The position numbers and the translations under genes were made by a program. Positions 3,847 to 27,141 of a DNA stretch of 64,000 nucleotides are shown in pieces. Source of the stretch: Gemmatimonadota bacterium (lineage in GTDB: Bacteria > Gemmatimonadota > Gemmatimonadetes > Palauibacterales > Palauibacteraceae). Below the pieces are notes generated by a model that did not search any database, was not told where the DNA came from, and was given only the letters and a program-made list of their open reading frames with translations. Position 1 is the stretch's first letter. Every line of letters starts with the position of its first letter. Where the stretch lies: the NCBI GenBank assembly GCA_022825725.1, contig JAJDWE010000033.1:87926-151925 (forward strand). Reading direction: 5' to 3'.

Positions 3847-5076
3847 TCAACGTTCGCCTTCCGGAGCCCGTCCCATGGCGCGCAGGAGGTCCCAGTAGTC
3901 GATCCACGCCGCGGATCGCATGGAGAGGGCGCTGAGCCGCGCGCTCCGGAAGGCGTTCGCCGCGTCGAGCAACTCCAGAAGCGACATCTCGTTCTCTCCG
4001 TACGCCGCTGTCGCCGAGGCGAGGAGCGCCTCGGCATCCGCCAACAGGCCGTCGGCTGCCGTTTCGAGACGGGCGCGACTGGAGGCATAGCGGTCCGAGG
4101 CCGTCAGGAGATCGTTCTCCGCCAACCGTCTCTGGAGGTCGAGGCGATGGGCGGCCGCGGCGCTCCGGGCGTCAGCTGCCTGCCGGTTCCCCCCTCCTCG
4201 GTTGAACAACGGCAGCGGGAGATCGAGACCCAGGCTGAGTCCCTGGAATCCGCCCTCCTGCCGTCGATATCCCAGACTGACGGTCGGATCGGGCATCCAG
4301 CCGGACCTCGCAACGGCGAGGTCGGCCTGCGCGGCGTCCAGATCCCGGGCCGCGGCCTCGAGGTCCGGCCGCTCGAGCAGCGCGCCGAGTGCGGCTTCCC
4401 GAGTCACCGGGGGCGGTAGCCCTTCCAGCCCCGCGGACGGTCCGACCTCCTCGATTCCCGTCCCGGGAAAGGTGAGCGCGGCGAGGCGCCGGCGGGCGTC
4501 GCGAGACCGGAGTTCGGCCTCCGCAACAACCTGCTCTGCCTGCACCCGTTCCAGTCGCAGCCGCCGCGTTTCGTAAGCGGAGATGTCTCCCTCCTCCAGG
4601 CGGATCTCCGCATCCTCGGCGACGTCCTGGATCACCGCCACGGCCTGCCGCGCCGTGAGTTCCGCCTCTTCCGCAAACCAGGCGAGCGCCCAGGCCTCGC
4701 GAACCTCGAAGGCGAGCCGGGTCGAGTCGCTGCGGAAACGGGCGGTGCTCGCTTCGATCGTGTGGGCGGCCGCCCGGTAGCGGGCGGCGGTCCGGCCGGG
4801 CCATTCCAGGGGTTGAAAGAGGAGCAGGTTCTCCTCCCAGTACTCGTCGCCATTCCGGTCGAGGTCGTCGCGCCTGGCCGAAAGCGACGGGTTGAACCAG
4901 GCACGAGACTGGCGCGCGACTCCCGCGATCTCGGCGGCCTCGGAGCGCGCGATCCTCAGCGCGAGGCTGTTCTCTGCGAACGCCTCGAGGGCTGCCGCGA
5001 GCGAGACTCGGCGTACGGTTTCCTGACCGAGGGTCGGGCGCGGCAGAAGGAGAAGGGCGACAAGCCCCGGAAGCAT
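3847..5076 (-). CDS. Outer membrane efflux protein (TolC/OprM/CzcC-like outer membrane factor).
   Basis: Signal peptide MLPGLVALLLLPRPTLGQ. Two repeated coiled-coil/beta-barrel halves with the characteristic SLLELLDAANAFRSARLSAL and WMPDPTVSLGY motifs of the OEP family. The start was chosen at the internal ATG that gives a signal peptide. Confidence 0.75.
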   Translation of the reverse strand: MLPGLVALLLLPRPTLGQETVRRVSLAAALEAFAENSLALRIARSEAAEIAGVARQSRAWFNPSLSARRDDLDRNGDEYWEENLLLFQPLEWPGRTAARYRAAAHTIEASTARFRSDSTRLAFEVREAWALAWFAEEAELTARQAVAVIQDVAEDAEIRLEEGDISAYETRRLRLERVQAEQVVAEAELRSRDARRRLAALTFPGTGIEEVGPSAGLEGLPPPVTREAALGALLERPDLEAAARDLDAAQADLAVARSGWMPDPTVSLGYRRQEGGFQGLSLGLDLPLPLFNRGGGNRQAADARSAAAAHRLDLQRRLAENDLLTASDRYASSRARLETAADGLLADAEALLASATAAYGENEMSLLELLDAANAFRSARLSALSMRSAAWIDYWDLLRAMGRAPEGER

Positions 5077-5262
5077 GATGTAGCGGATGTTGGATTCCCT
5101 CGTCGTGATAGCCCGGATCTCAGGGCCAACCTCACGAATCGCCGCGCCGCACAGCAAGGGCGCCCGACGTGACGAGTGACCTCGCGGGTCGGTTCGACGT
5201 CAGTCTATCGTGCCGCCGCATCTGACGTCGGTCACCCGGGCGTGATCGCCCACGCATTCCCG

Positions 5263-6684
5263 TCATCGGTCGGCGGCCTCCTCCAGCATGGCGTCCAGGG
5301 CGGTTCGGTCGAACCATTCGCCCCGCCGCACGACGCCCGCGATGCGTCGCGTGTTGCCGATCGCCTGCAACGGATTGCCCTCCAGCAGCACGAGGTCGGC
5401 CGGACTGCCCGCCACCACCATGCCGGCACCCTCCTCCCGTCCGAGGAAGCGGGCCGGGTTGACCGTGGCGCTACGCAGCGCCTCGTACGGTGAGAGACCC
5501 GCGGAGACGAGTTCCTCAAGTTCCCGATGGAGGGCGAAACCCAACGGCGGCGTGTCCGTGCCGGCCATCACGGAGGCGCCGGCGGCCACAAGGGCGCGGA
5601 TCAGGGAATCCGCCACCGCGAAACCATCCATCGCGGCCTCGAAGTCGCCCGCCGTGAAGTTGCTCATCCACGGGATCGACATGCGCTCGGTGTAGAAGCG
5701 GCGCATGTCATCCGTCATGTGCGATGCCTCTTCCGTGGCGAGATAGGCGTCGACCAGGCGGTCCGGCTTGTGGATCATGCGGACCGAGAGCGTCGGCACG
5801 TTCCACGAACCGGCCTCCAGGGTACGCTGCGCGAGCGCCGGAATTCGCGAGAGGTCCCCGTATGCCCAGGCGAGCGTTCGCGATCGCAGGTCGGGGCCGG
5901 GTTGGGCCGGCGCGTCGTCGGGCACGAGGTGCCAGATGTAGCCACGAAGGTGTTCGATGCTGGCTTGACCGGCCGCGAAGGCGCCATCGAGCCCCACCTC
6001 GAACGGAATGTGCCCGGCCACGGGGATGCCGAGTCCGCGCGCCTCGGCGACGATGCCGCGGTAGGCCGCGGCAGGCACGTTGTTGTAGACCTTGATGAAG
6101 TCGTATCCGGCCGCGTGCTGCTCCCGCACGACACGGGCGCCGTCGAGGCTGTCGCGCACGATTGCGCGCCCTGCCGTGTCGATGACGGCGGCGAACTCCG
6201 GTGGCGGCAACCCCTCGACGATGGGGCCCGCCGTGCGGATGTCCGGTCCGGCCAGTTCGCCGCTGCGGACGCTGTCGCGGAAGTCGAGCGTATGGGGGCC
6301 GCCCGAGAGGATGCGCACGCCGGTCACGCCTGTGGCCAGGAACCTCGCGAGCGCCCATGCCTCCCGGAAGTGGACGTGCATGTCGTTGAGCCCCGGGATG
6401 AGGAAGCGACCGCCGGCATCGACTCGCATGGCGTCCTCGGGGACATTCGCGGCGGCCGACGACTCGACTGCGAGCACGCGTCCGCCGCCGATCAGGACGG
6501 TCATGCCGGGGAGGACGCGCTCGCCGTCCATCGGGATGACCGAGACGTCCTCTATCGCCAGCGTCACCCGCGCGGGAGCCGATCCGGCGTCGGGGCTGCA
6601 GGCCAGGAGCGACGCCAGCACCGGAAACCCCACGGCCAGGGACACGTGGCGGCGGAGCATCATGGCCGCGACCGGAACGCTCAT
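5263..6684 (-). CDS. Amidohydrolase-superfamily metal-dependent hydrolase, lipoprotein.
   Basis: Lipoprotein signal MSVPVAAMMLRRHVSLAVGFPVLASLLAC. DMHVHF (HxH metal ligands), GVTGVR, a later H and the C-terminal VMAGTDTP motif are typical of the amidohydrolase fold. Confidence 0.75.
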   Translation of the reverse strand: MSVPVAAMMLRRHVSLAVGFPVLASLLACSPDAGSAPARVTLAIEDVSVIPMDGERVLPGMTVLIGGGRVLAVESSAAANVPEDAMRVDAGGRFLIPGLNDMHVHFREAWALARFLATGVTGVRILSGGPHTLDFRDSVRSGELAGPDIRTAGPIVEGLPPPEFAAVIDTAGRAIVRDSLDGARVVREQHAAGYDFIKVYNNVPAAAYRGIVAEARGLGIPVAGHIPFEVGLDGAFAAGQASIEHLRGYIWHLVPDDAPAQPGPDLRSRTLAWAYGDLSRIPALAQRTLEAGSWNVPTLSVRMIHKPDRLVDAYLATEEASHMTDDMRRFYTERMSIPWMSNFTAGDFEAAMDGFAVADSLIRALVAAGASVMAGTDTPPLGFALHRELEELVSAGLSPYEALRSATVNPARFLGREEGAGMVVAGSPADLVLLEGNPLQAIGNTRRIAGVVRRGEWFDRTALDAMLEEAADR

Positions 6685-6845
6685 CTGTCTCCATCTGCTG
6701 CTGACGGCCGGAATCGAATGCCGATTCACACTACGTGATGTTCGGAGAGGGGTCACGCCCCGATGAGATGCCGCGCACCTGTCGAGGGCGGCGGCGTTCG
6801 TCCGCCGCTGATGCTCCGCCCGCGGGTCGACGCTAGATTGGACAT

Positions 6846-9260
6846 ATGCACCCGCACGAACTGACGCCCGCACAGCGCGCGGCCGCCGAAGATCCGGACC
6901 GGCTTCCGAGGCTCGCCGACGCCGAGTTCACGGCGCTGGGCCGCCGCGCGCGCCGCGTAGAAGGGCTGCGCAAGTCGACCGGCCGCGAGATCTACACGGA
7001 CGACATCGTCCTGCCGGGGATGCTGCACGGGAAGATCCTCCGCTCCACGGAGGCGCACGCCCGGATCGTGTCCATCGACTCGGCCGAAGCCGAGGCCCTC
7101 GAAGGCGTGCACGGCGTCATCACCGGGCGGGATCTGCCGACGCCGTACGGGATCATCCCATGGACCCGCGACGAGCACGCGCTCTGCGTCGACAAGGTGC
7201 GTTTCATCGGCGACGCGGTGGCGGCGGTGGCGGCCGTCGACGAGGACACGGCGAACACGGCGCTCGAGCGGATTCACGTCGAGTACGCGCCGCTTCCCGT
7301 CTATCTCTCGCCGGAGGAATCGCTGACGCCCGAGGCCGCCGCGGAGCCCATCCACGCGCCTCGCAAGCCGGGGGCGAACGGCAACATCCTCAAGCACGTC
7401 CACCTCGAGTTCGGGGACGTGGACGCGCACATGGCGGAAGCGGACGTCACCATCGAGGGGGAGTACTTCTTCCACGGGACGACGCACACGCCGATCGAAC
7501 CCCACTGCGCGATCTCCCGACTCAACCCGGATGGCGTGCTCGAGGTGTGGTCCTCGACGCAGGTTCCGCACTACCTGCAGCGGGAGCTGGCGCGGGTGCT
7601 CGACCACGACGTGGCGAAGGTGCGGGTCGCGCAGCCGGCCGTGGGCGGGGCCTTCGGCGGCAAGTCCGAGCCATTCGATCTCGAGTTCTGCGTCGCGCTC
7701 CTCGCGATGCGGACGGGCCGTCCGGTGAAGATCCTCTACACGCGCGAAGAACTCTTCTACTCGCACCGCGGCCGCCACCCCATGCGCATGAAGTACCGGC
7801 TCGGCGCCTCGCGCGGCGGGAAGCTTCGGGCGCTCGACGCCCACACGATCCTGGACGGCGGCGCCTATGCCTAGTTCGGCCTCGTGACGACGTACTACTC
7901 GGGACAGCTCCTCACCGCGCCCTGCCATATCGAGTCCTACCGTTTCGACTCGACGCGCGTGTACACGAACGTCGCCCCGTGCGGCCCCAAGCGCGGCCAC
8001 GGTTCCGTGCAGCCGCGCTTCGCGTACGAGATCTCGCTCGACAAGCTGGCCGGGAAGCTCGGCCTCGACCCGTTCGAACTCCGTCGCCGCAACTTCATGG
8101 GCACGGGTCGGACGGTAAACGAGTTCAAGGTCCGGTCGAACGGTTTCCTGGAGTGCCTGGAGGCAGTCGAGCGGGCCAGCGACTGGAAGACACGCTACAG
8201 GCGGCTGCCGACAGGTCGCGGCCTCGGGATGGCCGCCTCCTCCTACATCTCCGGCACGAACTACCCCATCTATCCGAACGAGATGCCCCAGGCCGCGGTG
8301 CAGGTGCAGATCGAGCGCTCCGGCCGGGTGGCGATCCTGCACGGCGCCTCGGAGATCGGGCAGGGTTCCGATTCCACCATGGCCTATATCGCGTGCGAGG
8401 AACTCGGCGTCCCGCTCGAATACGTGCGCGTTTTCTCCGCTGACACGGACCTCACGCCGGTGGACCTGGGGGCCTACTCCTCGCGCGAGACCGTGATGGT
8501 GGGAAACGCCTGTCTCGAGGCCTGCCGCGCGCTTCGAGCGCAGGTGACGGAGGCGGTCGGGGAGGTCTGGGGCGTGGCGGCCGGCCGGGTGCGTCTGGCG
8601 CGGGGCTGGGCCTTCGACGTCGAAACCGCGGAGGACTCCGACCGCCGCATCCCTCTCTCGGAGGCGTTCAACATCGCCGAGGCGAAGTTCGGCCTGCTGG
8701 GCGCGGTCGGCTCCTACGACACGCCGAAGGATGTCCACGGCGAGTACCGCGGCGGCACGATCGGATCGTCGCCCGCCTATTCCTTCACGGCGCACGTGGC
8801 CGAAGTCGAGGTCGAAGAGGACACGGGGGTCGTCGACGTGAAGGACATCTGGGTGGCGCACGACTGCGGCCGCGCGCTCAATCCCGTGCTCGTCGAAGGC
8901 CAGATCGAGGGCTCCGCCTACATGGGATTCGCGGAGGCGATCTTCGAGGAACAGCTCTTCCGCGAGGGAGAGGTGGAGGGAGGGCTGCACACGTCGCCGT
9001 CGCTGCTGGACTACCGGATCCCCACTTCCATGGACTGCCCCGAGTTCGAGGCGCTCATCGTCGAGTCGGTGGATCCGGAAGGCCCCTACGGCGCGAAGGA
9101 GGCGGGGGAGGGCCCGCTCCACCCCTCGCTCCCCGCGATCGCGAACGCGATATACGACGCGGTGGGAGTGAGGATCGACGAGCTCCCGTTCACGCCGCAG
9201 CGCGTGTGGAGGACCCTGCGCGCGCACGCCGCCGCCGCGAGCCGCGAGGACGTGGCCTGA
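6846..9260 (+). pseudogene. Xanthine dehydrogenase / aldehyde oxidase / CoxL-family molybdopterin-binding large subunit, interrupted by a single in-frame TAG at 7872..7874.
   Basis: ORFs 6846..7874 and 7884..9260 are in the same frame (both coordinates mod 3 = 0). Together they make one collinear Mo-hydroxylase large subunit: a/b-hammerhead N-domain, then ...ILDGGAYA*FGLVTTYYSGQ..., then the MoCo domains with GSVQPRFAYE, AEVEVEEDTGVVDVKDIWVAHDCGRALNP and EAGEGPL. No adjacent 2Fe-2S or FAD subunits are present. Confidence 0.8.
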
Positions 9261-9282
9261 ACCCGTCGCGCACCACGCCGGC

Positions 9283-9702
9283 ATGAGGCAGTTCGTCCGA
9301 CAACTCGGCGTCGAGACGCGGGGGAAGGGCCTGTACGAGATCACCCGGCCCGTCCTCGAGTGGGCGGCCGGGCTCGAGATCGAGACGGGCATGCTCACCG
9401 TCTACATCCGCCACACGTCGGCGTCGCTCACGATCCAGGAGAACGCGGACCCGGACGTCCTCCACGACCTCTCGAACTTCTTCGCCCGTCTCGTTCCCGA
9501 AGGCGACCGCCACTACCGGCACACGATGGAGGGGTCGGATGACATGCCGGCGCACATCCGGTCGGCCCTGACCCAGACGCACCTGGCCGTCCCGGTGCTC
9601 GACGGAGCGCCGGCTCTCGGAACCTGGCAGGGGCTCTTCCTCTTCGAGCATCGGACCCGCCCCCACCGGCGAACGGTCGTGCTGCATATCCTCGGGGAAT
9701 AG
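9283..9702 (+). CDS. YjbQ/UPF0047 family protein (secondary thiamine-phosphate synthase-like).
   Basis: 139 aa. GMLTVYIRHTSASLTIQENADPDV...DMPAHIRSAL matches the UPF0047 pattern. Confidence 0.7.
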   Translation: MRQFVRQLGVETRGKGLYEITRPVLEWAAGLEIETGMLTVYIRHTSASLTIQENADPDVLHDLSNFFARLVPEGDRHYRHTMEGSDDMPAHIRSALTQTHLAVPVLDGAPALGTWQGLFLFEHRTRPHRRTVVLHILGE

Positions 9703-9704
9703 AC

Positions 9705-11207
9705 GTGCGTAAGGCAGGGCGGATCGCGCGAAAGCCCGGCTTCCGGGCATTCGCGGCGCTCGCCGTCGCCTCGGCCGCGGCGTGCGGCGACGGGAGCATG
9801 GAACTGCCGCTGACGCGGCCGCCGATGGTCATCGGCGCCGTGGCCGACCTCGACCTGGCCGTGGGGGACACGGCGACGGTGGAGGCCTCCGGCTACTTCC
9901 GCGATCCCGACGGAGACGTTCTCTCTTTCGAGTCGAGGTCGTCAGCCGAGGAGGTCGCGGTCGCCGACGTCTCGGGGAGCACGGTCCGCATCATCGCACT
10001 GGCGCCGGGGACGTCGACGGTGGCGATCACGGCGCGCGACCCGGAAGGGCGAGCCGCCGCGCTGCGCTTCGAGGTTACCGTGCCGAATCGGGCACCCTTG
10101 GCCGTGGGCGCGATCCCGGACCTCAGGTTGGCCGCGGCGGATACGGCACGGGTGGAGGTGTCGGGCTATTTCGCCGATCCGGACGGGGAAGCGCTCGGCT
10201 ATGGCGTGGCCTCTTCGGACAGCGGGGTGGCGGCCGTCGCCGCTCGGGGCGACACGATCGACGTGATCGGCGTCGCTCCGGGAACCGCGACCGTGACGGT
10301 GACGGCGCGCGACGCGGGAGGCCTCTCGGCCGAAAGCTCCTTCACCGTGCGCGTCCGGGCATCAGGGGGCGGCTTCGACATCGTGCTCGACTTCGACACC
10401 ACAGCGACGGCGCCGCGGCGGGCCGCGGTCCTCGCGGCGGCGGAACTCTGGATGTCGGTGCTGGCCGACACGGAGCTGCCGGCCGTGACGGTCGACGACC
10501 ACATCGAATGCTACGGAGCGAACACGACGGAGCCGGTGGGGACCATCGATGATCTGATGGTTCTCGTCGAGTTCCGGGATATCGACGGTCCGGGCCGCAC
10601 GTTCGCCCAGGCCGGCGTGTGCCGTCTGCGCGAAGAATCGATGCTGCCGTTCGCCAGCGTGGCGTTCTTCGACGTGTCGGACTTCGACGGCCTCATCGAC
10701 TCCGGCGATGCGATGGAACTCGCCGTTCACGAAATCGCGCACGCGCTCGGGTTCGGCCTGCTGTGGCGCCCCCTCGGCCTCCTTCGGGATCCTGCCCTGG
10801 GCGTGGGAGCGATCGACGCGCACTTCGTCGGTCCCCTGGCCATCGCCGCCTTTGACGCAGCGGGCGGCACGGCCTACACGGGCGGGGCCAAGGTCCCCGT
10901 CGAGAACCTCGGCGGAGCCGGGAGCGCGAACCTCCATTGGCGGGGGTCCGTCCTTGGCCGCGAACTCCTGAGGCCGCTCAACAGGATCGGCGTGCCGGAG
11001 AGCTTCAGCGCGATCACGATCCAGTCGATGGCCGATCTGGGTTACATTGTCGATGTGAGCCTGGCGGAGCCGTACAGGCTTCCCGGCGCCGACGCCGCGG
11101 ACGCGAAACCCGACCGCGTGGTCGACCTGGGCGACGATGTCCTCAGGGGTCCGGTGCAGGTCTTCGACCCGCGGGGACGCCTGGTGAGGGTGCTGCACAA
11201 TCGCTAA
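9705..11207 (+). CDS. Secreted lipoprotein zinc metalloprotease, leishmanolysin-like (M8-like metzincin), with two N-terminal tandem Ig/cadherin-like domains.
   Basis: GTG start. Lipobox LAVASAAAC. Two repeats of about 90 aa (PxxVGAIxDLxLAxxDTAxVExSGYFxDPDG...). The catalytic region contains HEIAHALGFG (HExxHxxGF), as in leishmanolysin/GP63 peptidases. Confidence 0.65.
   Translation: MRKAGRIARKPGFRAFAALAVASAAACGDGSMELPLTRPPMVIGAVADLDLAVGDTATVEASGYFRDPDGDVLSFESRSSAEEVAVADVSGSTVRIIALAPGTSTVAITARDPEGRAAALRFEVTVPNRAPLAVGAIPDLRLAAADTARVEVSGYFADPDGEALGYGVASSDSGVAAVAARGDTIDVIGVAPGTATVTVTARDAGGLSAESSFTVRVRASGGGFDIVLDFDTTATAPRRAAVLAAAELWMSVLADTELPAVTVDDHIECYGANTTEPVGTIDDLMVLVEFRDIDGPGRTFAQAGVCRLREESMLPFASVAFFDVSDFDGLIDSGDAMELAVHEIAHALGFGLLWRPLGLLRDPALGVGAIDAHFVGPLAIAAFDAAGGTAYTGGAKVPVENLGGAGSANLHWRGSVLGRELLRPLNRIGVPESFSAITIQSMADLGYIVDVSLAEPYRLPGADAADAKPDRVVDLGDDVLRGPVQVFDPRGRLVRVLHNR
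9816..10365. repeat. Tandem intragenic repeat of about 270 bp (two copies) encoding duplicated Ig-like domains of the metalloprotease.
   Basis: Protein-level repeat aa 38-128 versus 129-218, with conserved DL.LA..DTA.VE.SGYF.DPDG and GT.TV.ITARD blocks. Confidence 0.55.
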
Positions 11208-11239
11208 CCCGTTCCGCCGTCGACCGTTTCCCGGGCCCG

Positions 11240-11268
11240 TTGACACCCTGTGTCACGTCTCGGACAAT
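11240..11268 (+). promoter_or_regulatory. Candidate sigma70-type promoter (TTGACA-17 bp-GACAAT) with an overlapping perfect palindrome TGACAC-ccT-GTGTCA (11241..11255), a putative repressor operator upstream of the RND pump operon.
   Basis: Read directly: ...cccgTTGACAccctgtgtcacgtctcgGACAATcaa... lies 55-85 bp upstream of the ATG at 11324, and a GGGGAG RBS sits about 10 nt before the ATG. Confidence 0.35.
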
Positions 11269-11323
11269 CAAATGGATGATGGGCGTTTCCGGTCGCGTCC
11301 GACCTTCAGGGGAGTGAATTATC

Positions 11324-12535
11324 ATGCGCAGTAGAAGTCTCGCCGTAATCGGCGGTATCGTCCTCGGCACCGCGGCGATCGTGGCTCTCCTGCTCGTTCT
11401 GGCGCCGGAGCCGGAAGCCCGGGACCTCCCGCCGCAGATCCCCTTTGCCCAGACGGGCTCCGTGACGGCCGGGTCCGGAGCGATCCCGGTCCATGGATCG
11501 GGCACCGTCCGCCCGAGAGCCGAAATCAACGTCGCACCTCAGGTCGGTGGCCAGGTCGTCTGGGTCAATCCGGGGTTCCAGAGCGGCGGGCGGGTGGAAA
11601 CGGGGCAGACGCTCTTCCGGATCGACGAAACGGACTACCTGTACCGCGTGCAGGAAGCCGAGGCCAATCTCGCGTCGCGCCGCGTGGCCTTCCTGGAGGA
11701 GCAGGAACGATCCGGGATCGCCCTCGACCAGTACAGGCTCTATTCGGAACGGCGGGCGGGAGACGGCTCTTCGACCGACCCGAGTCCGCTGACGCTGCGG
11801 GAGCCTCAACTGGAGGCGGCGCGCGCCGCGCTCAAACGCGATGAGGCCCGCCTTGCCGACGCAAACCTTGCCCTTTCGAGGACCGAGGTTAAGGCGCCGT
11901 TCACCGGATTTGTGCGCGACGAGTCCGTGGCGGTCGGACAGATCGTTTCGCCGGGCGAGCCGGTCGGACGATTGTTCGCAGCCGACGCGGTCGAGGTGAA
12001 CGTGTCCCTGTCTCACGCCGATGCAGTGTTGATTCCCGACCTGTGGGAGCTTCAGGGCGGAGGCGGCGCGTCGCGCGTCGGCGCGCGGGTCGTCGCACGG
12101 TACGGCGAGGCCGGCTACAGCTGGGAAGGTTACGTGGACCGGGGTGAGGTCTCGCTCGACGAGCAGACGCGGACGGTGGACGTGGTCGTGCGTGTCCCGG
12201 ACCCGTTCTCGGCGGGCGTCGCGGTGGAGGGGGGGGACCCGGCCAACGGCCCCCCGCCGCTGCTCGTCGGTGAGTTCGTCGATGTGGAGATCGAGGGCGT
12301 ATCTCCCGATCGTTACTTCCGCGCACCGCGCGCCGCACTCCAACCGGGCAACGAAGTCTGGGCGGTGAACGATGGCGGCGTGGTCAGCATCGTCTCCGTG
12401 CATGTGCTGCAGCGTGCGGACGACGAGGTATTTCTCACCGGCGCTCTGCGGGACGGGCAGGCGGTGATCACCGGCGGAATCCGGTTCGCGACCGAAGGGA
12501 TGCTCGTTCAGACCGGAGCCCAGCCCGCGCGATGA
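11324..12535 (+). CDS. RND efflux membrane fusion protein (periplasmic adaptor, HlyD/AcrA family).
   Basis: N-terminal TM anchor, biotinyl/lipoyl-like hairpin and coiled coil (GQTLFRIDETDYLYRVQEAEANLA...LKRDEARLADANLALSRTEVKAPFTGFV). Immediately followed by the RND pump. Confidence 0.85.
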   Translation: MRSRSLAVIGGIVLGTAAIVALLLVLAPEPEARDLPPQIPFAQTGSVTAGSGAIPVHGSGTVRPRAEINVAPQVGGQVVWVNPGFQSGGRVETGQTLFRIDETDYLYRVQEAEANLASRRVAFLEEQERSGIALDQYRLYSERRAGDGSSTDPSPLTLREPQLEAARAALKRDEARLADANLALSRTEVKAPFTGFVRDESVAVGQIVSPGEPVGRLFAADAVEVNVSLSHADAVLIPDLWELQGGGGASRVGARVVARYGEAGYSWEGYVDRGEVSLDEQTRTVDVVVRVPDPFSAGVAVEGGDPANGPPPLLVGEFVDVEIEGVSPDRYFRAPRAALQPGNEVWAVNDGGVVSIVSVHVLQRADDEVFLTGALRDGQAVITGGIRFATEGMLVQTGAQPAR

Positions 12536-12542
12536 GTCCGGG

Positions 12543-15500
12543 ATGAGCCGCAACGGGGAGTTCCACGGCGAACGTCCCGGCCCGATCGCCTACATGGCGA
12601 GCAACAGCATTGCCGCCAACCTCCTGATGTTCGGGATCCTCGCCGCCGGACTGGTGGCGCTGACCGGCATCGAGCGGGAGGCGTGGCCCACCGTCCCCTT
12701 CTATCACGTCGAAGTCTCGATGGTCTATCCCGGCGCCACCCCGGAAGAGGTGGAGGAATCGATCGTCGTCAAGATCGAGGACCAGGTCAGCGGGCTCGAC
12801 GATGTGAAGGCGGTCAAATCGGTAGCGGCCCCCGGCGTGGCGTCCGTCCGGATCGAGATGGACTCCGGTACGGACATGGCGCGCGCGCTGGATGACGTCG
12901 AATCCGCGGTCAACCGCATTCAGTCGTTTCCGACCGGGGCCGAGCGTCCCCAGTTCCGGGAGATGACGAACCGCCAGAGCATGATGCGGCTCATCGTCCA
13001 TGGCGACGTATCCGAGCGTTCGCTGAAGGAACTGGCGTACCAGATCGAGGACGAACTCACCACGCTGCCAGCCGTGTCCCAGGTCGATGTCAGCGGCGTG
13101 CGGCAATACGAGATCTCCATCGAGATACCGCTCCAGAGGCTGAGGGCCCTCGGACTCACCCTCGCCGATATCGCCAATACGATTCGCCGCAGTTCGCTGG
13201 ACCTGTCGGCCGGCAGCATCGATACCCGGGAGTCCCAGGTACGGGTCAGGACCCTCGGTCAGAGCTACGACCAGCAGGACTTCGAGGAGATCGTCCTCCT
13301 CAGCAACAGCGACGGCACGGTCGTGCGCCTGGGCGATATCGCGAGGGTGCGCGACGAATATCAGGACATCGATCTGATTCTCCGGCACCAGAATCACCCT
13401 GCGGTATTCGTGGAGGTTTACCGGGCCGGCGGCGAGCAGGTGATGGACGTCGCCACAAGCGTGCACGAGCACCTGGCGAACGAGGTGATCCCGTCCCTGC
13501 CCGACGGGGTGGGCGTCACGGTCTGGAATGACGAGTCCCGGGACTACAAGGAACGGGCCGACCTTCTCCTGAAGAACGGGATCCTGGGCCTGTTGCTGGT
13601 GTTGATCGCCCTGAGCCTGTTTCTCCAGATCCGGCTCGCCCTGTGGGTCGCGGTCGGGCTCGCGGTCTCGGGCATCGGCGCGTTGGCCGTCATGCTGGTG
13701 CTCGACTACGCGATCAACACGATCTCACTGTTCTCCTTCGTCCTCGCGATCGGCATCATCGTCGACGATGCGATCGTCGTATCCGAGCAGATCCACCTGG
13801 AACGAATGCGGGGGACCCCGGGGGTGTTGGCGGCGATCCGCGGAACGCGGCGGATCAAGGTGCCGCTGACCTTCGCCGTCCTCACGTCGGTTGCCGCGTT
13901 CATGCCGCTCCTGTTCATCCCCGGAGGCGTCGGCGAGACGTGGTCCGCGTTGCCGGTGATCGTCATCGCCATGCTGATGGTGTCGCTGGTCGAATCGTTG
14001 CTGGTGCTGCCCAATCACCTCTCCCACCTGCCGGGCCCGGAATGGGTGCCGACGAGCGCCGCCGACCGGTTCTTCGCCCGGGTCCAAAATCGCGTGGACA
14101 ACGTGCTGAAGCGGTTCGTACGGGGTCCGCTGGATCACGCGTTGCGCTTCGCGACGCGCGAGCCCGGCGTCACGGTGACAGGAGCGGTCTGCCTGCTCGT
14201 GTTGTGCATCTCCCTGCTGCCGGCAGGCATCGTCCCGACGACGTTCGCCGGCGTGGTGGAGGGGGATTTCGCCACGGCGACTCTGGAAATGCCGGATGGA
14301 ACGACCGCGCAGCGAACGCACGAAGTCGCTCAGGAACTGGAAGCGGCCGGACACAGGGTCATCGAGCGGCTCTCGGCCGACCGGTCCGAGGATGCGCCTC
14401 CGCTGCTGTCGGGGGTCACCGTAATGGTCGGCCAGCGGCCGCGGATTCAGGGCGGAGGGCTGAACCCCGCGCCGACCCTTAATCCGGAAGCCAATATCGC
14501 CACCGTCGAGTTCAAACTTCTCGGAGCGCAGCAGCGACAGGTCTCCACCGGAGAGGTCGCGCAGGCGTGGCGCGAGGAAGTGGGCGTGCTGCCCTATGTG
14601 CGCAGCCTCACGTTCACCGCCGAGATCATCGACTTCGGCAACCCGGTCGAGACCGTTCTGTCCCACTCGGACCCGGAGCGTCTCATCGGCATCGCGGACT
14701 CCGTGGTCATCGGGCTCCGCCGCGTGGGCGGCGTCTTCGACGTACGCTCCGATCACACTCCGGGCGTGCCGGAGGTTCAACTCGAGTTGCGGCCGGGAGC
14801 GCGCACCCTCGGTCTCACGCTGGAGGACCTGGCCGGGCAGGCGCGGGCCGCGTTCTTCGGCGCGGAGGCCATGCGGATCCAGCGCGGCCGGGAGGAGGTG
14901 CGGGTCTACGTGCGCCTGCCGTCCGATGAGCGGGAGTCCGTCACGGACATCGAAGGATATCTGCTTCGTACGCCGAGCGGCGGCGAGGTTCCCCTGACCA
15001 CCGTGGCCTCGTTGAACGCGGGCACTTCGCCCCCCGCGATTCAGCGGAGGGATGGCCAGCGCGTCGTTACCGTCAGTGCGGATGTGGATCCCGTGGTGAT
15101 TTCCGGCGGGGAGGCCAACGACATTCTCGAGAATTCGATCCTGGCGGACCTCACCGCCGCGGACCCGGATCTGACGTACACGCTCGGCGGCGAGCAGCAG
15201 CAGCAGGTCGAGTCCCTGGACTCGCTCTATCGCGGGTTTGCGATCGCCATGCTCCTCATCTTCGCGCTCCTGGCCATTCCCCTGCGTTCCTGGACCAAAC
15301 CGTTCATCATCATGGCCGTCATCCCGTTCGGGTTCATCGGCCTGATCCTCGGTCACCTGATTCTGGGGATCGCCGTGAGCGCGCAGTCCTTCATGGGTTT
15401 CTTCGGTCTCAGCGGCGTGGTCGTGAACGACTCCCTGGTCATGATCGATCTCATCGACAGGAAACTCAGGGACGGCGTGTCCGCGCGGACCGCGATCATC

Positions 15501-15767
15501 GAGGGCGCGAAAGGGCGGTTTCGCCCGATCCTGCTCACGTCCGTGACGACCTTTCTCGGTTTCACGCCCCTCATTCTGGAACGCGCGATTCAGGCGCAGT
15601 TCCTCGTGCCCTTTGCCGCGTCCCTCGGTTTTGGGATCCTTATCACCACCGCTCTGCTGATGCTGATCGTGCCGGCGCTTTCCACGATCCATCTGCGGCT
15701 GATCCCGCCGCGCCGAAGTTCCGGCGTCCGCGAGATACCGGTCCAGCCGCCTTCAGTCGGTGTCTGA
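12543..15767 (+). CDS. RND superfamily efflux transporter (AcrB/CzcA-like, 12 TM, about 1070 aa).
   Basis: 1074 aa. Typical RND architecture, two large periplasmic loops, and conserved blocks (SIAANLLMFGILAAG..., AIGIIVDDAIVVSE, LLAIPLRSWTKPFIIMAVIPFGFIGLILGHL). Confidence 0.9.
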   Translation: MSRNGEFHGERPGPIAYMASNSIAANLLMFGILAAGLVALTGIEREAWPTVPFYHVEVSMVYPGATPEEVEESIVVKIEDQVSGLDDVKAVKSVAAPGVASVRIEMDSGTDMARALDDVESAVNRIQSFPTGAERPQFREMTNRQSMMRLIVHGDVSERSLKELAYQIEDELTTLPAVSQVDVSGVRQYEISIEIPLQRLRALGLTLADIANTIRRSSLDLSAGSIDTRESQVRVRTLGQSYDQQDFEEIVLLSNSDGTVVRLGDIARVRDEYQDIDLILRHQNHPAVFVEVYRAGGEQVMDVATSVHEHLANEVIPSLPDGVGVTVWNDESRDYKERADLLLKNGILGLLLVLIALSLFLQIRLALWVAVGLAVSGIGALAVMLVLDYAINTISLFSFVLAIGIIVDDAIVVSEQIHLERMRGTPGVLAAIRGTRRIKVPLTFAVLTSVAAFMPLLFIPGGVGETWSALPVIVIAMLMVSLVESLLVLPNHLSHLPGPEWVPTSAADRFFARVQNRVDNVLKRFVRGPLDHALRFATREPGVTVTGAVCLLVLCISLLPAGIVPTTFAGVVEGDFATATLEMPDGTTAQRTHEVAQELEAAGHRVIERLSADRSEDAPPLLSGVTVMVGQRPRIQGGGLNPAPTLNPEANIATVEFKLLGAQQRQVSTGEVAQAWREEVGVLPYVRSLTFTAEIIDFGNPVETVLSHSDPERLIGIADSVVIGLRRVGGVFDVRSDHTPGVPEVQLELRPGARTLGLTLEDLAGQARAAFFGAEAMRIQRGREEVRVYVRLPSDERESVTDIEGYLLRTPSGGEVPLTTVASLNAGTSPPAIQRRDGQRVVTVSADVDPVVISGGEANDILENSILADLTAADPDLTYTLGGEQQQQVESLDSLYRGFAIAMLLIFALLAIPLRSWTKPFIIMAVIPFGFIGLILGHLILGIAVSAQSFMGFFGLSGVVVNDSLVMIDLIDRKLRDGVSARTAIIEGAKGRFRPILLTSVTTFLGFTPLILERAIQAQFLVPFAASLGFGILITTALLMLIVPALSTIHLRLIPPRRSSGVREIPVQPPSVGV

Positions 15768-16817
15768 CTGGAGTTCGCCGGTCGTCGACGCCGGATTCGG
15801 ATAGAACTGCCGGCAGTATCGGCGGTACTTTCCTATGGGGCCGTCGGTCCGGCTCAGGCGGGGCGGGGTCCGGTAGCGCTTCTTGTCCCAGATGACGACG
15901 TCCTGCAGGACGAAGCGCTTCTCTTCCCGGATGAAGAAGAGATTCAGCAGCCGATGGCGCAGCGGCACGGGCAGAAAGGCCAGGCCCGCGAAGAACCGGC
16001 CCGGTTTGCGGATCTCCCGCACCTGGCTGACCAGCGTCAATTCCACCGACTCGCCGTCGACCGGCGTCGAGAGCACCCAGAGACGCGCACGCATGCCGAC
16101 GGTCTTCTCGTGGATTTCGACGAAGGAGAAGCCGAGTCCATGGACGTGCGTGATGGCGGAGACGTCGGAGTGGATGTCCAACAGACCCGCGATTCGTCGA
16201 ACCATCTTGAAGTCGAAGCAGCTCTTCAGATAGGCGCCGTCGATCGAAAAGTCGGTCGGCTCGACATCGTGGTACCCGTGTGTGTACTCCAGGTGCTCCA
16301 CGTCCACGGAGTTCTCCGTCGTCTCCTGCGGGTGACCCCGGAACCGCAGGGTGGTGGACCGCAACCCGGTCCATTCCACGCCGGCCGGTGGCTCATCCGG
16401 CAGGCGCCACTGCGCCGGCCTTCCGCCGCTCCCCCACCAGGCGAAGATCATGCCGAGGACCTCGCGGGTCTCGTAGAGCTTCAACCTCGCGGCCTTCGGG
16501 GGTGGGGCATTGGGCGTGGCCACGCACTGGCCGGCGGTGTCGAACTCGAACCCGTGGAAGGGACAGACGAGGCAGCCGTCGCGCACCACGCCGCCGACCG
16601 ACGGTCCCATGTGCGATCCAAGGTGCGGACAGAAGGCGTCCGCCACGCAGATGCGGCCCTCGTCGTCGGCCCAGGCGACGATCTCCTCGCCCAGCCAGGT
16701 CTTCTCGATCAGCCCTTCCCGCACGACCGTTTTTCGGCTCGCGACGAAATACCACCCCTCGGGACACGCCGGCAGCGTACCGCTGTATGTCGAGGTTCGA
16801 TCGCTTCTGGTCGTCAT
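15753..16817 (-). CDS. Rieske [2Fe-2S] non-heme iron oxygenase, alpha-subunit-like (KshA/VanA/PobA type).
   Basis: CPHLGSHM...(17 aa)...CPFHGFEF is a Rieske CxH-X17-CxxH motif. The C-terminal catalytic domain is about 200 aa. Start chosen at MTTRSDRT. It overlaps the end of the RND gene by 15 bp, convergent. Confidence 0.8.
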   Translation of the reverse strand: MTTRSDRTSTYSGTLPACPEGWYFVASRKTVVREGLIEKTWLGEEIVAWADDEGRICVADAFCPHLGSHMGPSVGGVVRDGCLVCPFHGFEFDTAGQCVATPNAPPPKAARLKLYETREVLGMIFAWWGSGGRPAQWRLPDEPPAGVEWTGLRSTTLRFRGHPQETTENSVDVEHLEYTHGYHDVEPTDFSIDGAYLKSCFDFKMVRRIAGLLDIHSDVSAITHVHGLGFSFVEIHEKTVGMRARLWVLSTPVDGESVELTLVSQVREIRKPGRFFAGLAFLPVPLRHRLLNLFFIREEKRFVLQDVVIWDKKRYRTPPRLSRTDGPIGKYRRYCRQFYPNPASTTGELQSDTD

Positions 16818-16867
16818 GAGGCGAACTTCGCTACCGTGACGCTGGCGAGTCAACCAGGATTCAAGGG

Positions 16868-19480
16868 ATGACAATGGCTCTCGACAGTATCCGGGGCGTC
16901 GTGCTCCTTGCGCTCTTCATCGCGATGGCCGCCGGCCTGCCGGCGAACGGTTCCGGCCAGAGCGCGATCGCGGTTCCGCGCTTCGAGATCGCGTCCTCGC
17001 CGATCGAACTCGCCGGACCCGTGCGTCCCGGCGAGTATCTCGGCGTCACCGGGCCCCGGTCCGCGTGGCTGGGGGTCGAGACGGGCGAAGCGGAACTGTG
17101 GGTCCATCCCCTCAAGGTCGGGAACCGTTTCCGGCTCGGCTTCTCGACGCCGGCCTACGGGACGCCGATTCCGGGAGACGAGGTCGCGCGCACCGTGCGG
17201 GTGCGGCCCGAACTCACGACGATCACCTACAGCCACGCGGCCTTCCAGGTGCGCCAGCACATCCTCGCACCGGCCGACCTCCCCGGCCTTCTGCTCCTGC
17301 TCGACGTGGACAGCCCGGAACCGCTCGAGATCATCGCGGAGTTCGAGCCCGTGCTGAACTATATGTGGCCGGGTTCGATCGGCGGGCAGTACGCCTACTG
17401 GGACGCCCCCCGCCGCGTCTTCGTGCTCTCCGAGAGCCTGCAGGAGACGAACGCCGTCGTCGGCTCGCCGTGGGCCGTGAACTCGGTGGAACACCCGGCT
17501 CATCAACTGGGCGAGGCGCCCCGCACCATGGTGATCCCAGTCGACCCGGAGCGCGCGGGGCGGGAGTTCATCCCGATCGCGGTTGCGGGCGGTACGATGC
17601 CCCGCGAGGAGGTCTTCGCCAGCTACGAACGGTTGATCGCCGAGGCGCGCTCGCTCTACGACGCGAAGCGGGCATGGGCCGACTCGGTGCTCGCCTCCAC
17701 CGTCTCCATCGATTCGCCGGATCCGCGGCTCGATCTCGCCCTCGAGTGGGCGAAGATCAACCTGGAGGAGCAGCGCGTCTGCAACCCCGACCTCGGGTGC
17801 GGGTTCGTCGCCGGGTGGGGCCACTCCCGCAACGGAACCCGTCCCGGCTTCGGCTGGTTCTTCGGCGGCGACGCCGCGCAGACCATGTTCGCCATGGAGG
17901 CGCTCGGGCAGTGGGAGCTGGTGGCGGAGGAACTCGCCTTTCTCGCGAGGTACCAGCGCGATGACGGCAAGATCACGCACGAAATCTCCCAGGCGGCCGC
18001 GCGCATCCCGTGGTTCGATGTGTACCCGTACGCCTACTACCACGCCGACACGACGCCCTACTGGATGGTCGCCCTTTACGAGTACTGGCGGGCGAGCGGC
18101 GACGACGACCTCCTGCGTGAACTGTGGCCGGCGTACCGGCGCGCCTGGGCGTGGTGCCTCACCGCCGAAACGGACGGGGACGGGATCATCGAGAACACCG
18201 TGGGTGGGCTCGCGGCGGTCGAGGTCGGCGGCCTCGGGGCCGCGCTCCACCAGGATATCTACCTGGCGGGGATCTGGGTGGCGGCGCTTGAAGGGACGAT
18301 GGCGTTGGCCGAACACATGGGCGACGCCGGGATCGTGGGCCGGGCGCGGGAACTCGCGCCCCGTGCGCGCGCGACCCTGAACGATGCCTACTGGCTGGAC
18401 GACCCGGGACACCATGCCTTCGGGATCCTCGCCGACGGCGGAACCAACGACAACCTCACCGTGTGGCCCGCCACAGCGGCGGCGTTCGGCCTGTTCGACG
18501 AGGCCCGCGCGCGATCGACCCTCGCCCACCTCGCGAGCGACCGGATCTCGTCGGACTGGGGCGCGCACATGCTCTCGACGGAGAGCGAACTGTATCACCC
18601 GCTCCAGTACAACATGGGAACGGTATGGCCCTTCGTGACGGGATACGTGTCGTGGGCGCAGTACCGGTATCGGCGTCCGTGGGCCGGCTTCCATCTCGTG
18701 GACGCTGTGAAGCAGATGACGTTCGACTGGAGTCTGGGCCGACATCCGGAGCTGCTGTCCGGAACGTTCTACGAGCCCCTCGACCAGACCGTCCCCCACC
18801 AGTTCTTCGCGACGTCGGCCCTGGTGACACCGCTGCTGCGCGGCGTCATCGGCTGGGAACCCGATGCGCCGCTGGACCGCGTGCGCCTCGCCCCGCAACT
18901 CCCGCCGGACTGGCCGGCCATGACGGTGAGACGGCTCCGAGCCGGGGAAACGACGACGGACGTGGAGATCCGACAACGGTGGACGGCGGAAGGCGGGGAG
19001 CGACGGACGACGCTCACGACCACGGGGCCTGCGCTGACGTTCGCGTTCGTACCCGACGTGCCGGCGGGCGCGCGGGACGTATCCATCACCGTGAACGGCG
19101 TAACCACCGAACTCACCGAGGATGGAACGGTGGAGATGAGGCTGGGCGAGACCGGCGCTGCGGACGATCGCGCGGAGATCGTCGTGACATGGAATGGCGG
19201 ACTCGCGATCGCACCGCCCCGAATCGACCTCGAACCGGGCCAAAGGAGCAGCGGCCTGCGCATCCTCGACTTCAACGCAGATCCGGATGGCTGGCTTCTC
19301 GAAGTGGAGGGGCTGCCGGGTCGGAGCTACGACCTCGGAATCTTCGGCGCCACGGTCGAAGCTGACGTCGTGCAAGGGGCCGCAACGACAGCCCTGGTTA
19401 ACCCCGCGACCGTACGTATTGCGTTTCCTCCCGACACTGCGAAACGCACGACAGCTGTGGTTCGTTTCACGACCCCGTAA
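16868..19480 (+). CDS. Secreted large glycoside-hydrolase-like protein, (alpha/alpha)6-barrel, glycogen-debranching-enzyme/GH63/GH116-like.
   Basis: Signal peptide MTMALDSIRGVVLLALFIAMAAG. The middle region has FGWFFGGDAAQTMFAMEALGQWEL and later WPFVTGYVSWAQY-type aromatic-rich barrel motifs, as seen in GDE_C/GH63-like barrels. The family assignment is tentative. Confidence 0.5.
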   Translation: MTMALDSIRGVVLLALFIAMAAGLPANGSGQSAIAVPRFEIASSPIELAGPVRPGEYLGVTGPRSAWLGVETGEAELWVHPLKVGNRFRLGFSTPAYGTPIPGDEVARTVRVRPELTTITYSHAAFQVRQHILAPADLPGLLLLLDVDSPEPLEIIAEFEPVLNYMWPGSIGGQYAYWDAPRRVFVLSESLQETNAVVGSPWAVNSVEHPAHQLGEAPRTMVIPVDPERAGREFIPIAVAGGTMPREEVFASYERLIAEARSLYDAKRAWADSVLASTVSIDSPDPRLDLALEWAKINLEEQRVCNPDLGCGFVAGWGHSRNGTRPGFGWFFGGDAAQTMFAMEALGQWELVAEELAFLARYQRDDGKITHEISQAAARIPWFDVYPYAYYHADTTPYWMVALYEYWRASGDDDLLRELWPAYRRAWAWCLTAETDGDGIIENTVGGLAAVEVGGLGAALHQDIYLAGIWVAALEGTMALAEHMGDAGIVGRARELAPRARATLNDAYWLDDPGHHAFGILADGGTNDNLTVWPATAAAFGLFDEARARSTLAHLASDRISSDWGAHMLSTESELYHPLQYNMGTVWPFVTGYVSWAQYRYRRPWAGFHLVDAVKQMTFDWSLGRHPELLSGTFYEPLDQTVPHQFFATSALVTPLLRGVIGWEPDAPLDRVRLAPQLPPDWPAMTVRRLRAGETTTDVEIRQRWTAEGGERRTTLTTTGPALTFAFVPDVPAGARDVSITVNGVTTELTEDGTVEMRLGETGAADDRAEIVVTWNGGLAIAPPRIDLEPGQRSSGLRILDFNADPDGWLLEVEGLPGRSYDLGIFGATVEADVVQGAATTALVNPATVRIAFPPDTAKRTTAVVRFTTP

Positions 19481-19520
19481 GCGAGAGTCTGCTGCCCGCC
19501 GCTCCGCAACGCCTGAATAT

Positions 19521-19543
19521 CGCCAAATTGTCGTCATTTGGCG
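19521..19543. terminator. Perfect 8-bp stem hairpin CGCCAAAT-tgtcgtc-ATTTGGCG in a locally lower-GC convergent intergenic region. A second hairpin GTCGATTC-N10-GAATCGAC lies at 19698..19723.
   Basis: Read directly. It lies between the convergent 3' ends of the GH-like gene (19480) and the lysJ/argD operon (19747). No T-tract follows, so it is an intrinsic-terminator candidate only. Confidence 0.3.
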
Positions 19544-19746
19544 GTTGCCTGTCGCCCCAAAGTCGCATACGATCAGCTATCACATGAGTGCGAGTGGGGA
19601 TTGGGCGGTGTCCACGTGATCGCAAGGCTCGTGGCGACCTCCTCGGCTCGGCATAGCGCCGTCCAGTCCCCTCTCCACACACGAATTCCGGGATCCAGTC
19701 GATTCGGGCATCCGGGAATCGACGATCCGACGGCTCCCGGTCGGCG

Positions 19747-20901
19747 TCAGTCGGCCAGTACTTCCGTCAGCGTATCCGCCACCTCGTCGATCTGTGCTTC
19801 GGTGATCACGAGCGGCGGCAGCAGCCGGATGACCGTGGTGCCGGCCGGGAGGGCGAGGACGCCCCGCTCCGCGAGAGCTCCCAGGTGGGGTCGGCAGCGC
19901 TCGCGGAGTTCGACGCCGATCATGAGGCCCACCTGCCGCACGGCGCGCACGCGAGCCGACTGGCGTCGGGCGAAACGCTCGCTGAAGCGGGCGCCCAGCG
20001 CCTCCGCCCGATCGTCGAGCCGCTCATCCCGCATGAAGCGGATCGCGGCCAGGGCGGCGGCGCTGGCGAGCGGATTGCCGCCGAAGGTCGTGCCGTGCTG
20101 CCCGGGCGGCGGCTGCAGCCGTTCATGCGCCAGGACCGCTCCCAGCGGCACGCCGCCCGCGATCGCCTTCGCGAGGCAGAGCACGTCCGGCGCGACGCCG
20201 TAGCGGTCGCAGGCGAACATGCGGCCGGTGCGGCAGAAGCCCGTCTGGATCTCGTCGAACACGAGGACCGCACCGGCCTCGTCGCAGATGCGGCGCGCCG
20301 CCGACAGATAGTCCTGGCTGGCCGGCCGCACCCCGCCCTCTCCCTGCACCGGTTCGATGATGACCGCCGCCGTGTCCTCGTCCACGGCCGCGCGCAGTTT
20401 CTCGACGTGGTTGAACGGCACGAACGAGAACCCGGGCACGAGGGGCTCGAACGGTTCCCGGTACTGTTTTTTATGCGTCGCGCTCAGCGCACCCAGCGTT
20501 CGCCCGTGGAAGCCGCGCATGGCGGACACGACCCCCGCCCGTCCCGTTGCGAGGCGCGCGAACTTGATCGCCGCCTCCACCGCCTCCGCCCCCGAATTGC
20601 AGAGGAAGGCGCGCGTGAGCCCCGCCGGCGCGATCGAGACGAGTTCGGCCAGCAACCGCGCCCGGACATCGTTGTAGAAGATCCCGGGACAGGACACGAG
20701 GACCCGAGCCTGCTCCGCCAACGCCTCGGCGACGGCCGGGTTGGCGTGGCCGATGCTCGCCACGCCGATGCCGCCGACGCAGTCGATATAGCGGCGACCC
20801 TCGTCGTCCCACACGCACGCGCCCTCGCCCCGCACGACCGCGATGTCGCGCTTCGGGAACACCTCGAGCGCATACTCCCGCTCCGTCTCGCGCGCGTTCA
20901 T
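19747..20901 (-). CDS. argD/lysJ: Class III PLP aminotransferase, acetylornithine / [LysW]-aminoadipate-semialdehyde aminotransferase (ArgD/LysJ).
   Basis: Start MNARETEREYALEVF. Motifs include DCVGGIGVASIGHANP and DEIQTGFCRTG, plus the Lys in CLAKAIAGG. Its 4-bp overlap with the upstream lysZ stop indicates translational coupling. Confidence 0.85.
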   Translation of the reverse strand: MNARETEREYALEVFPKRDIAVVRGEGACVWDDEGRRYIDCVGGIGVASIGHANPAVAEALAEQARVLVSCPGIFYNDVRARLLAELVSIAPAGLTRAFLCNSGAEAVEAAIKFARLATGRAGVVSAMRGFHGRTLGALSATHKKQYREPFEPLVPGFSFVPFNHVEKLRAAVDEDTAAVIIEPVQGEGGVRPASQDYLSAARRICDEAGAVLVFDEIQTGFCRTGRMFACDRYGVAPDVLCLAKAIAGGVPLGAVLAHERLQPPPGQHGTTFGGNPLASAAALAAIRFMRDERLDDRAEALGARFSERFARRQSARVRAVRQVGLMIGVELRERCRPHLGALAERGVLALPAGTTVIRLLPPLVITEAQIDEVADTLTEVLAD

Positions 20902-21710
20902 CCGATGACCGTACCCCGTCCGGCCAGCGCCTCCGTGACCGGATGTTCGACGCACCCGTCCGCGATCACCACGCGCGTCGTGCCGGACTCCGCGACTCGC
21001 CGCAGGGCGAGCAGTTTGCGCTTCATGCGCCCGCGTGCCTCGCTCTCGCGACGCGCCAGCTCCGCGCGCCCGAGCCGTGCGACGACCGACGCCGGATCGT
21101 CAGGGTCCGCCAGGAATCCGGGCGCCTCGATCAGCTGGATCACGCAGTCCGCTCGCAATTCGTCGCTCAGCAGGGTCACGACGTCATCGTTCTCCGAGTT
21201 GATCGCCACGTTGTGCTCGTCGATGAGGGGCACGGTGACCACCGGCGTGAACCCGCCATCGAGGAGCAACGCCAGCAGCTTGCGGTTCACCTCCACCGGT
21301 TTCCCGGACAGGTCCCGTTTGATCAGCGTCTTGCCGCCCTCCCTCACCCGGATGCCCCGGTTGCGGCGACCGCGCACGAGCGCGCCGTCGAGCCCGGTGA
21401 GCCCGACCGCGTTCACGCCCTGGCCCTGCAGCAGTTCCACGATGCGCTTGTTTCGCAGGCCCGCGTAGGCCATGAGCATCACGTCGATCAGGTCGCGGTC
21501 GGAGTGTACACTCTCCTGTCCGGACACGGACGTGAGGATGCGCTTCTCGACCCCGAGCCTCCGAGCCAGCGAATCGCGCAGCGCGTTCGCGCCGTGCACG
21601 ATGACGAACGGACCGGACAAGCCCGCGAGGTCGCGAGCGATCCCCTCGAGATTGATGGATTCTCCGCCGCCGATCTTGACGAGAAGCAGCCCGTCGGATT
21701 CGCCCGGCAT
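20898..21710 (-). CDS. lysZ/argB: Short-form amino acid kinase, [LysW]-aminoadipate / acetylglutamate kinase (LysZ/ArgB).
   Basis: 270 aa. LLLVKIGGGESINLEG...FVIVHGAN...GLTGLDGALV has the AAK-family glycine-rich motifs, and the length is typical of LysZ. Confidence 0.85.
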   Translation of the reverse strand: MPGESDGLLLVKIGGGESINLEGIARDLAGLSGPFVIVHGANALRDSLARRLGVEKRILTSVSGQESVHSDRDLIDVMLMAYAGLRNKRIVELLQGQGVNAVGLTGLDGALVRGRRNRGIRVREGGKTLIKRDLSGKPVEVNRKLLALLLDGGFTPVVTVPLIDEHNVAINSENDDVVTLLSDELRADCVIQLIEAPGFLADPDDPASVVARLGRAELARRESEARGRMKRKLLALRRVAESGTTRVVIADGCVEHPVTEALAGRGTVIG

Positions 21711-21713
21711 CGG

Positions 21714-22370: not shown

Positions 22371-22395
22371 GAGGATTCAGCTCCGCGTGTCGCGG

Positions 22396-27138: not shown

Positions 27139-27141
27139 CGA

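Follow-up and report, generated by a model that had tools for sequence, protein, structure and literature searches.

An in-frame amber codon in a molybdenum-hydroxylase large-subunit gene of a Gemmatimonadota bacterium, and its serine counterpart in sibling assemblies

What does a single in-frame amber codon signify when it falls inside an otherwise well-formed gene for the large subunit of a molybdenum hydroxylase? In the contig analysed here, from a marine bacterium, such a codon (TAG) divides a xanthine-dehydrogenase-family gene into two open reading frames, and it might reflect a young nonsense allele, an error in the deposited record, gene decay, a functional split of the enzyme, or programmed decoding of the codon. 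The first-pass annotation of this DNA placed a recent nonsense mutation or a sequencing or assembly error first, an ordering which agrees with every test described below. Throughout, the window denotes the whole stretch of DNA analysed (64,000 nucleotides), which is possibly derived from a sponge metagenome, and positions are counted from its first base. The coordinates of the features discussed are collected in Table 1.

Table 1. Window coordinates and strands of the features discussed in the text.
Feature	Position	Strand	Remarks
Xanthine-dehydrogenase-family molybdopterin-binding large-subunit gene	6846..9260	+	804 codons, codon 343 a stop; assigned by translation, Pfam, orthologs, PDB and NCBIfam
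N-terminal ORF	6846..7874	+	342 aa
In-frame amber codon TAG	7872..7874	+	base 7873 is A; C (TCG, Ser343) in sibling assemblies
Downstream ORF	7884..9260	+	458 aa, GTG start; mechanical call, same frame as 6846..7874
Amidohydrolase, divergently transcribed	5263..6684	-	473 aa; Pfam Amidohydro_1/3; neighbour kept in all Palauibacter-clade relatives
yjbQ/UPF0047 gene, directly 3' of the large subunit	9283..9702	+	own terminator is TAG
M16 peptidase gene holding the 28261-28312 cluster	27142..29979	-	
Gene with the second nonsense change	61285..63321	+	678-aa protein reduced to 643 aa (last 35 residues lost)

The interrupted gene and the residue expected at codon 343

The two ORFs had been described as sharing one frame and together encoding a full-length MoCo subunit with the TAG as its sole interruption. 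Translation and Pfam analysis confirm this description, the reading frame having a single internal stop in the context LDGGAYA-stop-FG. The a/b-hammerhead, MoCoBD_1 and MoCoBD_2 domains are present in that order (PF01315, E value 1.8e-32; PF20256, E value 1.3e-65), and matches to PF02738 flank the stop (E values 4.2e-53 and 1.6e-15). Upstream of the stop, Pfam recognizes Ald_Xan_dh_C followed by profile positions 6-169 of the 244 of MoCoBD_1, while the rest of MoCoBD_1 (174-244) and then MoCoBD_2 are recognized downstream. One codon thereby cuts a full-length large subunit inside the MoCoBD_1 domain, and the downstream ORF is the C-terminal 57% of that subunit and not a separate gene. In relatives, the region corresponding to 7884..9260 is read through uninterrupted as part of a single 804-aa protein. 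The active-site motif VGGAFGGKSE (residues 266-275) and the C-terminal Glu-containing segment GAKEAGEGPL (residues 749-758) are both invariant in the ortholog alignment and align to the corresponding enzyme of Thauera aromatica described below; we take both segments to have the catalytic role that is general to the family.

The best solved relative is the alpha subunit of 4-hydroxybenzoyl-CoA reductase, HcrA, from T. aromatica (PDB: 1RM6_A; E value 2.9e-179), and the two proteins align over their whole lengths (query 30-798, chain residues 10-769). The best NCBIfam model, TIGR03194, scores 833.4 bits, below its curated equivalog cutoff of 994.55, and the protein accordingly counts as a xanthine-dehydrogenase-family large subunit and not a certified HcrA. 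HcrA (PDB: 1RM6 and 1SB3) shares with the present protein the loop GGAYA-x-[FY]G and the use of a CoxS/HcrC-like 2Fe-2S small subunit as partner. The amber position corresponds to Gly in HcrA (GGAYAGYG), whereas it is Ser in the Palauibacter clade, and, unlike in the HcrA system, no gene for an FAD/[4Fe-4S] beta subunit adjoins either the large- or the small-subunit gene here.

Positions 7854-7883 read GAC GGC GGC GCC TAT GCC TAG TTC GGC CTC. The first-pass annotation had expected Ser or Tyr at the TAG, reached by a single-base change from TCG or TAC, and had proposed an alignment to homologs as a check. This alignment gives Ser. A protein search returned thousands of homologs, and the residue was counted in the best 120 (identity 73-98%, mostly about 800 aa and intact), from Gemmatimonadota and many of them named Candidatus Palauibacter; Ser occupies the position in 118 of the 120, in the context DGGAY[AS]-S-FGLV. 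At the nucleotide level, a locus scan with one genome per species yielded 80 related loci, every one of which has a Ser codon (TCG in 51, TCC in 23, TCT in 2 and AGC in 1, with the remaining 3 reading GGYESFG and likewise having Ser). TAG was found at this position in none of the 80 loci and none of the 120 best protein homologs. Tyr is not borne out, nor is TAC as the original codon; TCG is ancestral and the change is C to A at position 7873. The protein search also returned intact 804-aa orthologs at 73-98% identity. Apart from its stop, the gene is undamaged, conserved and under selection, and encodes the large subunit in a member of the Gemmatimonadota that resembles Candidatus Palauibacter.

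A second truncated product, a 346-aa protein in ENA (P0122), was considered as an independent truncation and rejected, its allele and its lineage being different and its lesion being a 1-base frameshift. It is encoded on a 5,179 bp contig from a related lineage, and the frameshift lies a few codons before the amber site (window ~7855-7890), in a GGCGGCGCC run, where the translation passes from TLDG to APTPRSVS and then stops. This frameshift is probably an assembly or sequencing error unrelated to the TAG.

Partner subunits and gene order

The flanking genes are an amidohydrolase on the opposite strand and yjbQ downstream, as had been reported, and neither is a 2Fe-2S or FAD subunit. The accompanying claim that no partner subunits lie nearby holds within the window, where gene tables and a motif scan revealed no Fer2_2 or FAD_binding_5 gene. 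It fails just outside. A search for coxS/coxM-like partners in the upstream flank and the window located a 2Fe-2S small-subunit gene (Fer2+Fer2_2, 208 aa; L093:607-1233) on scaffold_107, a sibling assembly considered below. This gene is on the same strand as the large subunit and 13.1 kb upstream of it, i.e., ~6.3-6.9 kb before window base 1. The same search found no FAD subunit (FAD_binding_5 or CO_deh_flav_C by Pfam) from 7.5 kb upstream of the window through to its end. Some members of the molybdenum-hydroxylase family have no FAD subunit, and its absence does not exclude membership.

Eleven genes separate the two subunit genes: YjgF/RidA-like, beta-lactamase-family, AbiEi/AbiEii, OmpH, amidohydrolase, QueF, SDF, a gene with no Pfam match, SNF, OEP, and a second amidohydrolase. 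In a distant relative (locus L026), by comparison, the small-subunit gene (9439..10008) overlaps the start of the large-subunit gene at 10001. The small subunits of L093 and L026 are 75.1% identical and the large subunits 75.7%, a matching divergence which argues that the L093 gene product and the interrupted large subunit are cognate partners. A search with the L026 small subunit likewise returned Palauibacter orthologs at ~76-77% identity. A small-subunit gene directly precedes the large-subunit gene in most of the other Gemmatimonadota. In 54 of the 66 loci from distant members (identity 76% or less), the strand that carries the large subunit also has a gene with the QCGFCTPG motif upstream of it; Pfam confirmed Fer2+Fer2_2 in both of the loci tested (L030 and L088), and no FAD-binding subunit was found beside the operon in either. 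By these comparisons the large subunit is not an orphan, its cognate 2Fe-2S gene lying just beyond the edge of the window.

The order amidohydrolase, Mo subunit, yjbQ, M8-peptidase, RND is the same in Palauibacter-clade relatives with an intact gene. Because the arrangement without an adjacent partner is common to all Palauibacter-clade relatives in which the gene is intact, it is the ancestral arrangement of the clade and is not a sign of decay. That the amidohydrolase and yjbQ are kept as neighbours may point to a role in the degradation of heterocycles. In this clade the large subunit has been pulled 13 kb away from its FeS partner, and subunits that seem to be orphans may only look so in a limited window.

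Sibling assemblies and a second nonsense change

The yjbQ product of the window is also encoded on four other public contigs. The closest sibling, ENA scaffold_107 (sample SAMN22237331, 183 kb), shows 10 differences from the window in 63,998 bases and is probably from the same population as the window contig. The differences are at 7873, at 63214, and in a group of eight clustered at 28261-28312; no indels were found, and no scattered differences beyond the first two. From window position 1 to 25767, position 7873 is the sole difference (C in scaffold_107). Likewise, this C is all that distinguishes scaffold_107 over 8,420 bases, and the Logan contig of SRR16351684 over 2,412 bases, from the window. 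The second sample (ENA scaffold_83, SAMN22237330; Logan run SRR16351685) has TCG too and differs from the window at a few dozen sites. In all, C is present at 7873 in four other assemblies from two samples, namely scaffold_107, scaffold_83, and the Logan contigs of SRR16351684 and SRR16351685.

The 342-aa and 458-aa products, on the other hand, have a single recorded source, an NCBI contig of 187,539 bp. Searches of JGI metagenome contigs gave 0 matches, both with the exact 26-mer of either allele and with the fully degenerate pattern D-G-G-A-Y-A-TAG-F-G-L-V. The amber stop is private to one deposited assembly, and the intact TCG allele is probably carried by the same population as well.

The Logan contigs of both runs begin at the identical base, window position 7643, at the family-conserved stretch coding for GGAFGGKSEP. 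Our guess is that the assembly graph may branch here on account of paralogous Mo-hydroxylase genes in the metagenome, and not because of the SNP 230 bp away.

Both of the isolated differences from scaffold_107 (7873 and 63214) are stops. At 63214-63216, the window has TGA where scaffold_107 has CGA (Arg), a T versus C difference at 63214. Scaffold_83 encodes the same full-length 678-aa protein, and the shortened product is again recorded only from the 187,539-bp NCBI contig. Pfam gave no match for the full-length protein, whose one similarity is a weak match to 'choice-of-anchor B'. Stop-producing changes make up 2.7% of all possible coding substitutions here and 4.7% of the GC-to-AT substitutions. 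As the stop at 7873 was picked because it is a stop, 63214 provides the only independent evidence, with p ~0.03-0.05, a value which is suggestive and not conclusive.

The cluster at 28261-28312 is of a different kind. It comprises eight differences within 52 bp, with one amino-acid change (L/I), and here the window agrees with scaffold_83 from the other sample and not with scaffold_107. It has the appearance of a short tract of recombination or of a strain haplotype, and it shows the assemblies to be mosaics of co-existing strains.

Origin of the amber codon

On balance, we lean toward the amber codon being a genuine and very young nonsense allele, at the level of the strain or the sample, that the assembly path followed. 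A C-to-A change at 7873 would have converted TCG (Ser343) to TAG, only in the deposited MAG contig. If the allele is expressed, translation would end after residue 342, within the first Moco-binding domain, and the predicted product would be without the end of MoCoBD_1, the whole of MoCoBD_2, and the C-terminal segment containing AKEAGEGPL. With neither the second Moco-binding domain nor the active-site segment at the C terminus in its product, this would be a null allele, and it would segregate beside the intact one.

The age of the lesion is constrained by the pattern of substitution. Relative to the ortholog at locus L001 (95.5% identical), the ratio of synonymous to non-synonymous codon differences is 36:11 in the part preceding the stop and 47:11 in the part following it, and comparisons with the orthologs at L012 and L013 gave similar figures. 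No second lesion was found in the gene. The pattern of purifying selection is the same in both halves of the gene, with no long-term decay. Since selection is equal on both sides and the lesion is single, the stop is either very young or not real.

In favor of a real allele, the isolated differences from scaffold_107 amount to ~3 per 100 kb, which is ordinary for strain variation. In a short-read de Bruijn assembly, where only read-supported k-mers are normally emitted, consensus errors would be expected to be rarer than this. We infer that the A at 7873 is present in real reads and is not a consensus artefact. Against a real allele, the A was found in no second assembly, and the four that have C are independent. 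In addition, the second nonsense change at 63214 hints at a non-randomness that neither a real allele nor random error explains.

That the stop is instead an error of base calling, consensus or assembly confined to one deposited contig, with the organism itself having TCG and an intact, functional gene, is a serious possibility to which we give somewhat less than even weight. All other assemblies of the same or the sister sample have C at 7873 and, in the closest of them, the sequence is otherwise identical for tens of kilobases. The same NCBI contig has, as a further private and damaging change, the one at 63214 (CGA to TGA), and there could be a problem with the quality of this record. Both substitutions, C to A as well as C to T, moreover belong to the classic damage-type artefacts. 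However, the 64 kb are free of indels and of other scattered differences, and random errors would yield a stop only ~2.7% of the time. Short-read graph assemblers also normally emit no bases that reads do not support, a point which bears on this contig to the extent that its assembler has been correctly deduced. That the MAG was built by such an assembler is hinted at by a sibling MAG, one of whose contigs has a k141-style name, and by a paper on Ircinia sponges in which MAGs were assembled with Megahit (Kelly et al. 2022, PMC9531527). The text of this paper gives no SAMN identifier, and its tie to the present samples is a guess from the label 'KELL22'. The paper on the Palauibacterales (PMC10469786) contains nothing on the molybdenum-hydroxylase family.

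Whether allele or error, the finding comes down to a private nonsense SNP of an ordinary sort, or to a base error, in the record of one MAG. It resembles the ordinary nonsense pseudogene or assembly SNP of a MAG in that a single base creates the stop, that one record alone has it and that sibling assemblies have the intact allele, and it does not differ from these in kind; what is unusual is that the one further isolated difference from scaffold_107 likewise creates a stop. When a MAG shows a single in-frame stop, this should not be taken as recoding or decay before sibling assemblies and reads have been checked.

Should both stops be real and lie on one haplotype, they would mark a sublineage of a (possibly sponge-associated) symbiont that accumulates loss-of-function changes far above the neutral expectation. 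We regard this as unlikely. The cause could be that genes are adaptively inactivated inside a single host, or that the genome is beginning to erode, and the contig would then capture loss-of-function evolution very early, at its first step, with the intact ancestor in the same sample.

The remaining readings fare much worse than a young allele or an error in the record. The first-pass annotation had named a decaying orphan subunit as one form of the recent mutation, and an old pseudogene of this kind, a large subunit that has lost its partners and is degrading, is highly improbable. Its one support is that no FeS or FAD subunit gene occurs within the 64-kb window, and this is countered by the Fer2+Fer2_2 gene on the same strand 13.1 kb upstream. 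Only one lesion is present, the ratio of synonymous to non-synonymous differences is equal on the two sides of the stop, and intact copies of the gene exist in the same population, in a sibling that differs at 10 positions, and in all relatives that have the same, ancestral gene order. The notion of decay is contradicted on each of these counts.

It is scarcely conceivable that the 342-aa and 458-aa pieces, the latter restarting at the GTG at 7884, assemble into a functional split enzyme. The precedent is nicotinate dehydrogenase NdhL/NdhM from Eubacterium barkeri, whose Mo subunit is made as two consecutive pieces, a natural split seen in chains A and B of PDB 3HRD, and a GTG does occur 10 nt past the stop. 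The 3HRD split, however, falls near query residue 441-476 and not at 343; it is conserved and functional and lies ~100 or more residues further on, whereas the present break is private and inside a domain, namely MoCoBD_1, in the invariant GGAYASFG loop. No relative is split at residue 343, and a restart would lose S343, F344 and G345, which are invariant in the ortholog alignment, and turn L346 into the initiator Met.

Programmed decoding of the amber codon as pyrrolysine, by a suppressor tRNA or by read-through, to give the full-length protein has next to no probability, and its last place in the first-pass annotation, which saw no support for Pyl machinery, was well judged. The case resembles pyrrolysine systems in having an in-frame TAG inside an enzyme gene, and the sole point in favor of recoding is that this TAG is single in a frame that is otherwise perfect. 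It differs from them in that the TAG is conserved neither in the 80 loci nor in the 120 best homologs, and the degenerate pattern brought up no TAG allele in the JGI metagenomes either. Scaffold_107, otherwise identical here, uses TCG, and a site that has a Ser codon in an otherwise identical assembly cannot be programmed. The scaffold_107 loci spanning window positions 3847..63718 (~93% of the window) contain 43 complete called genes, and TAG terminates 10 of these, the adjoining yjbQ included; TAG is an ordinary terminator in this neighborhood, which argues against recoding. Finally, a tRNA scan of the 64-kb window found none, an Rfam search of the whole window returned no matches, and no Pyl-type family was present among its Pfam-annotated genes.

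Two other groups of genes in the window may be recorded. Genes of the sulfite-oxidase family (Oxidored_molyb + Mo-co_dimer) are present at 36094..37302 (+) and 37758..38915 (-), flanking a DUF2784 gene, so that the region encodes further Moco enzymes. At ~19.7-24.4 kb on the minus strand, a cluster of LysW, LysX, semialdehyde dehydrogenase, amino-acid kinase and aminotransferase genes looks like one for carrier-protein (AAA-type) biosynthesis of lysine or arginine.
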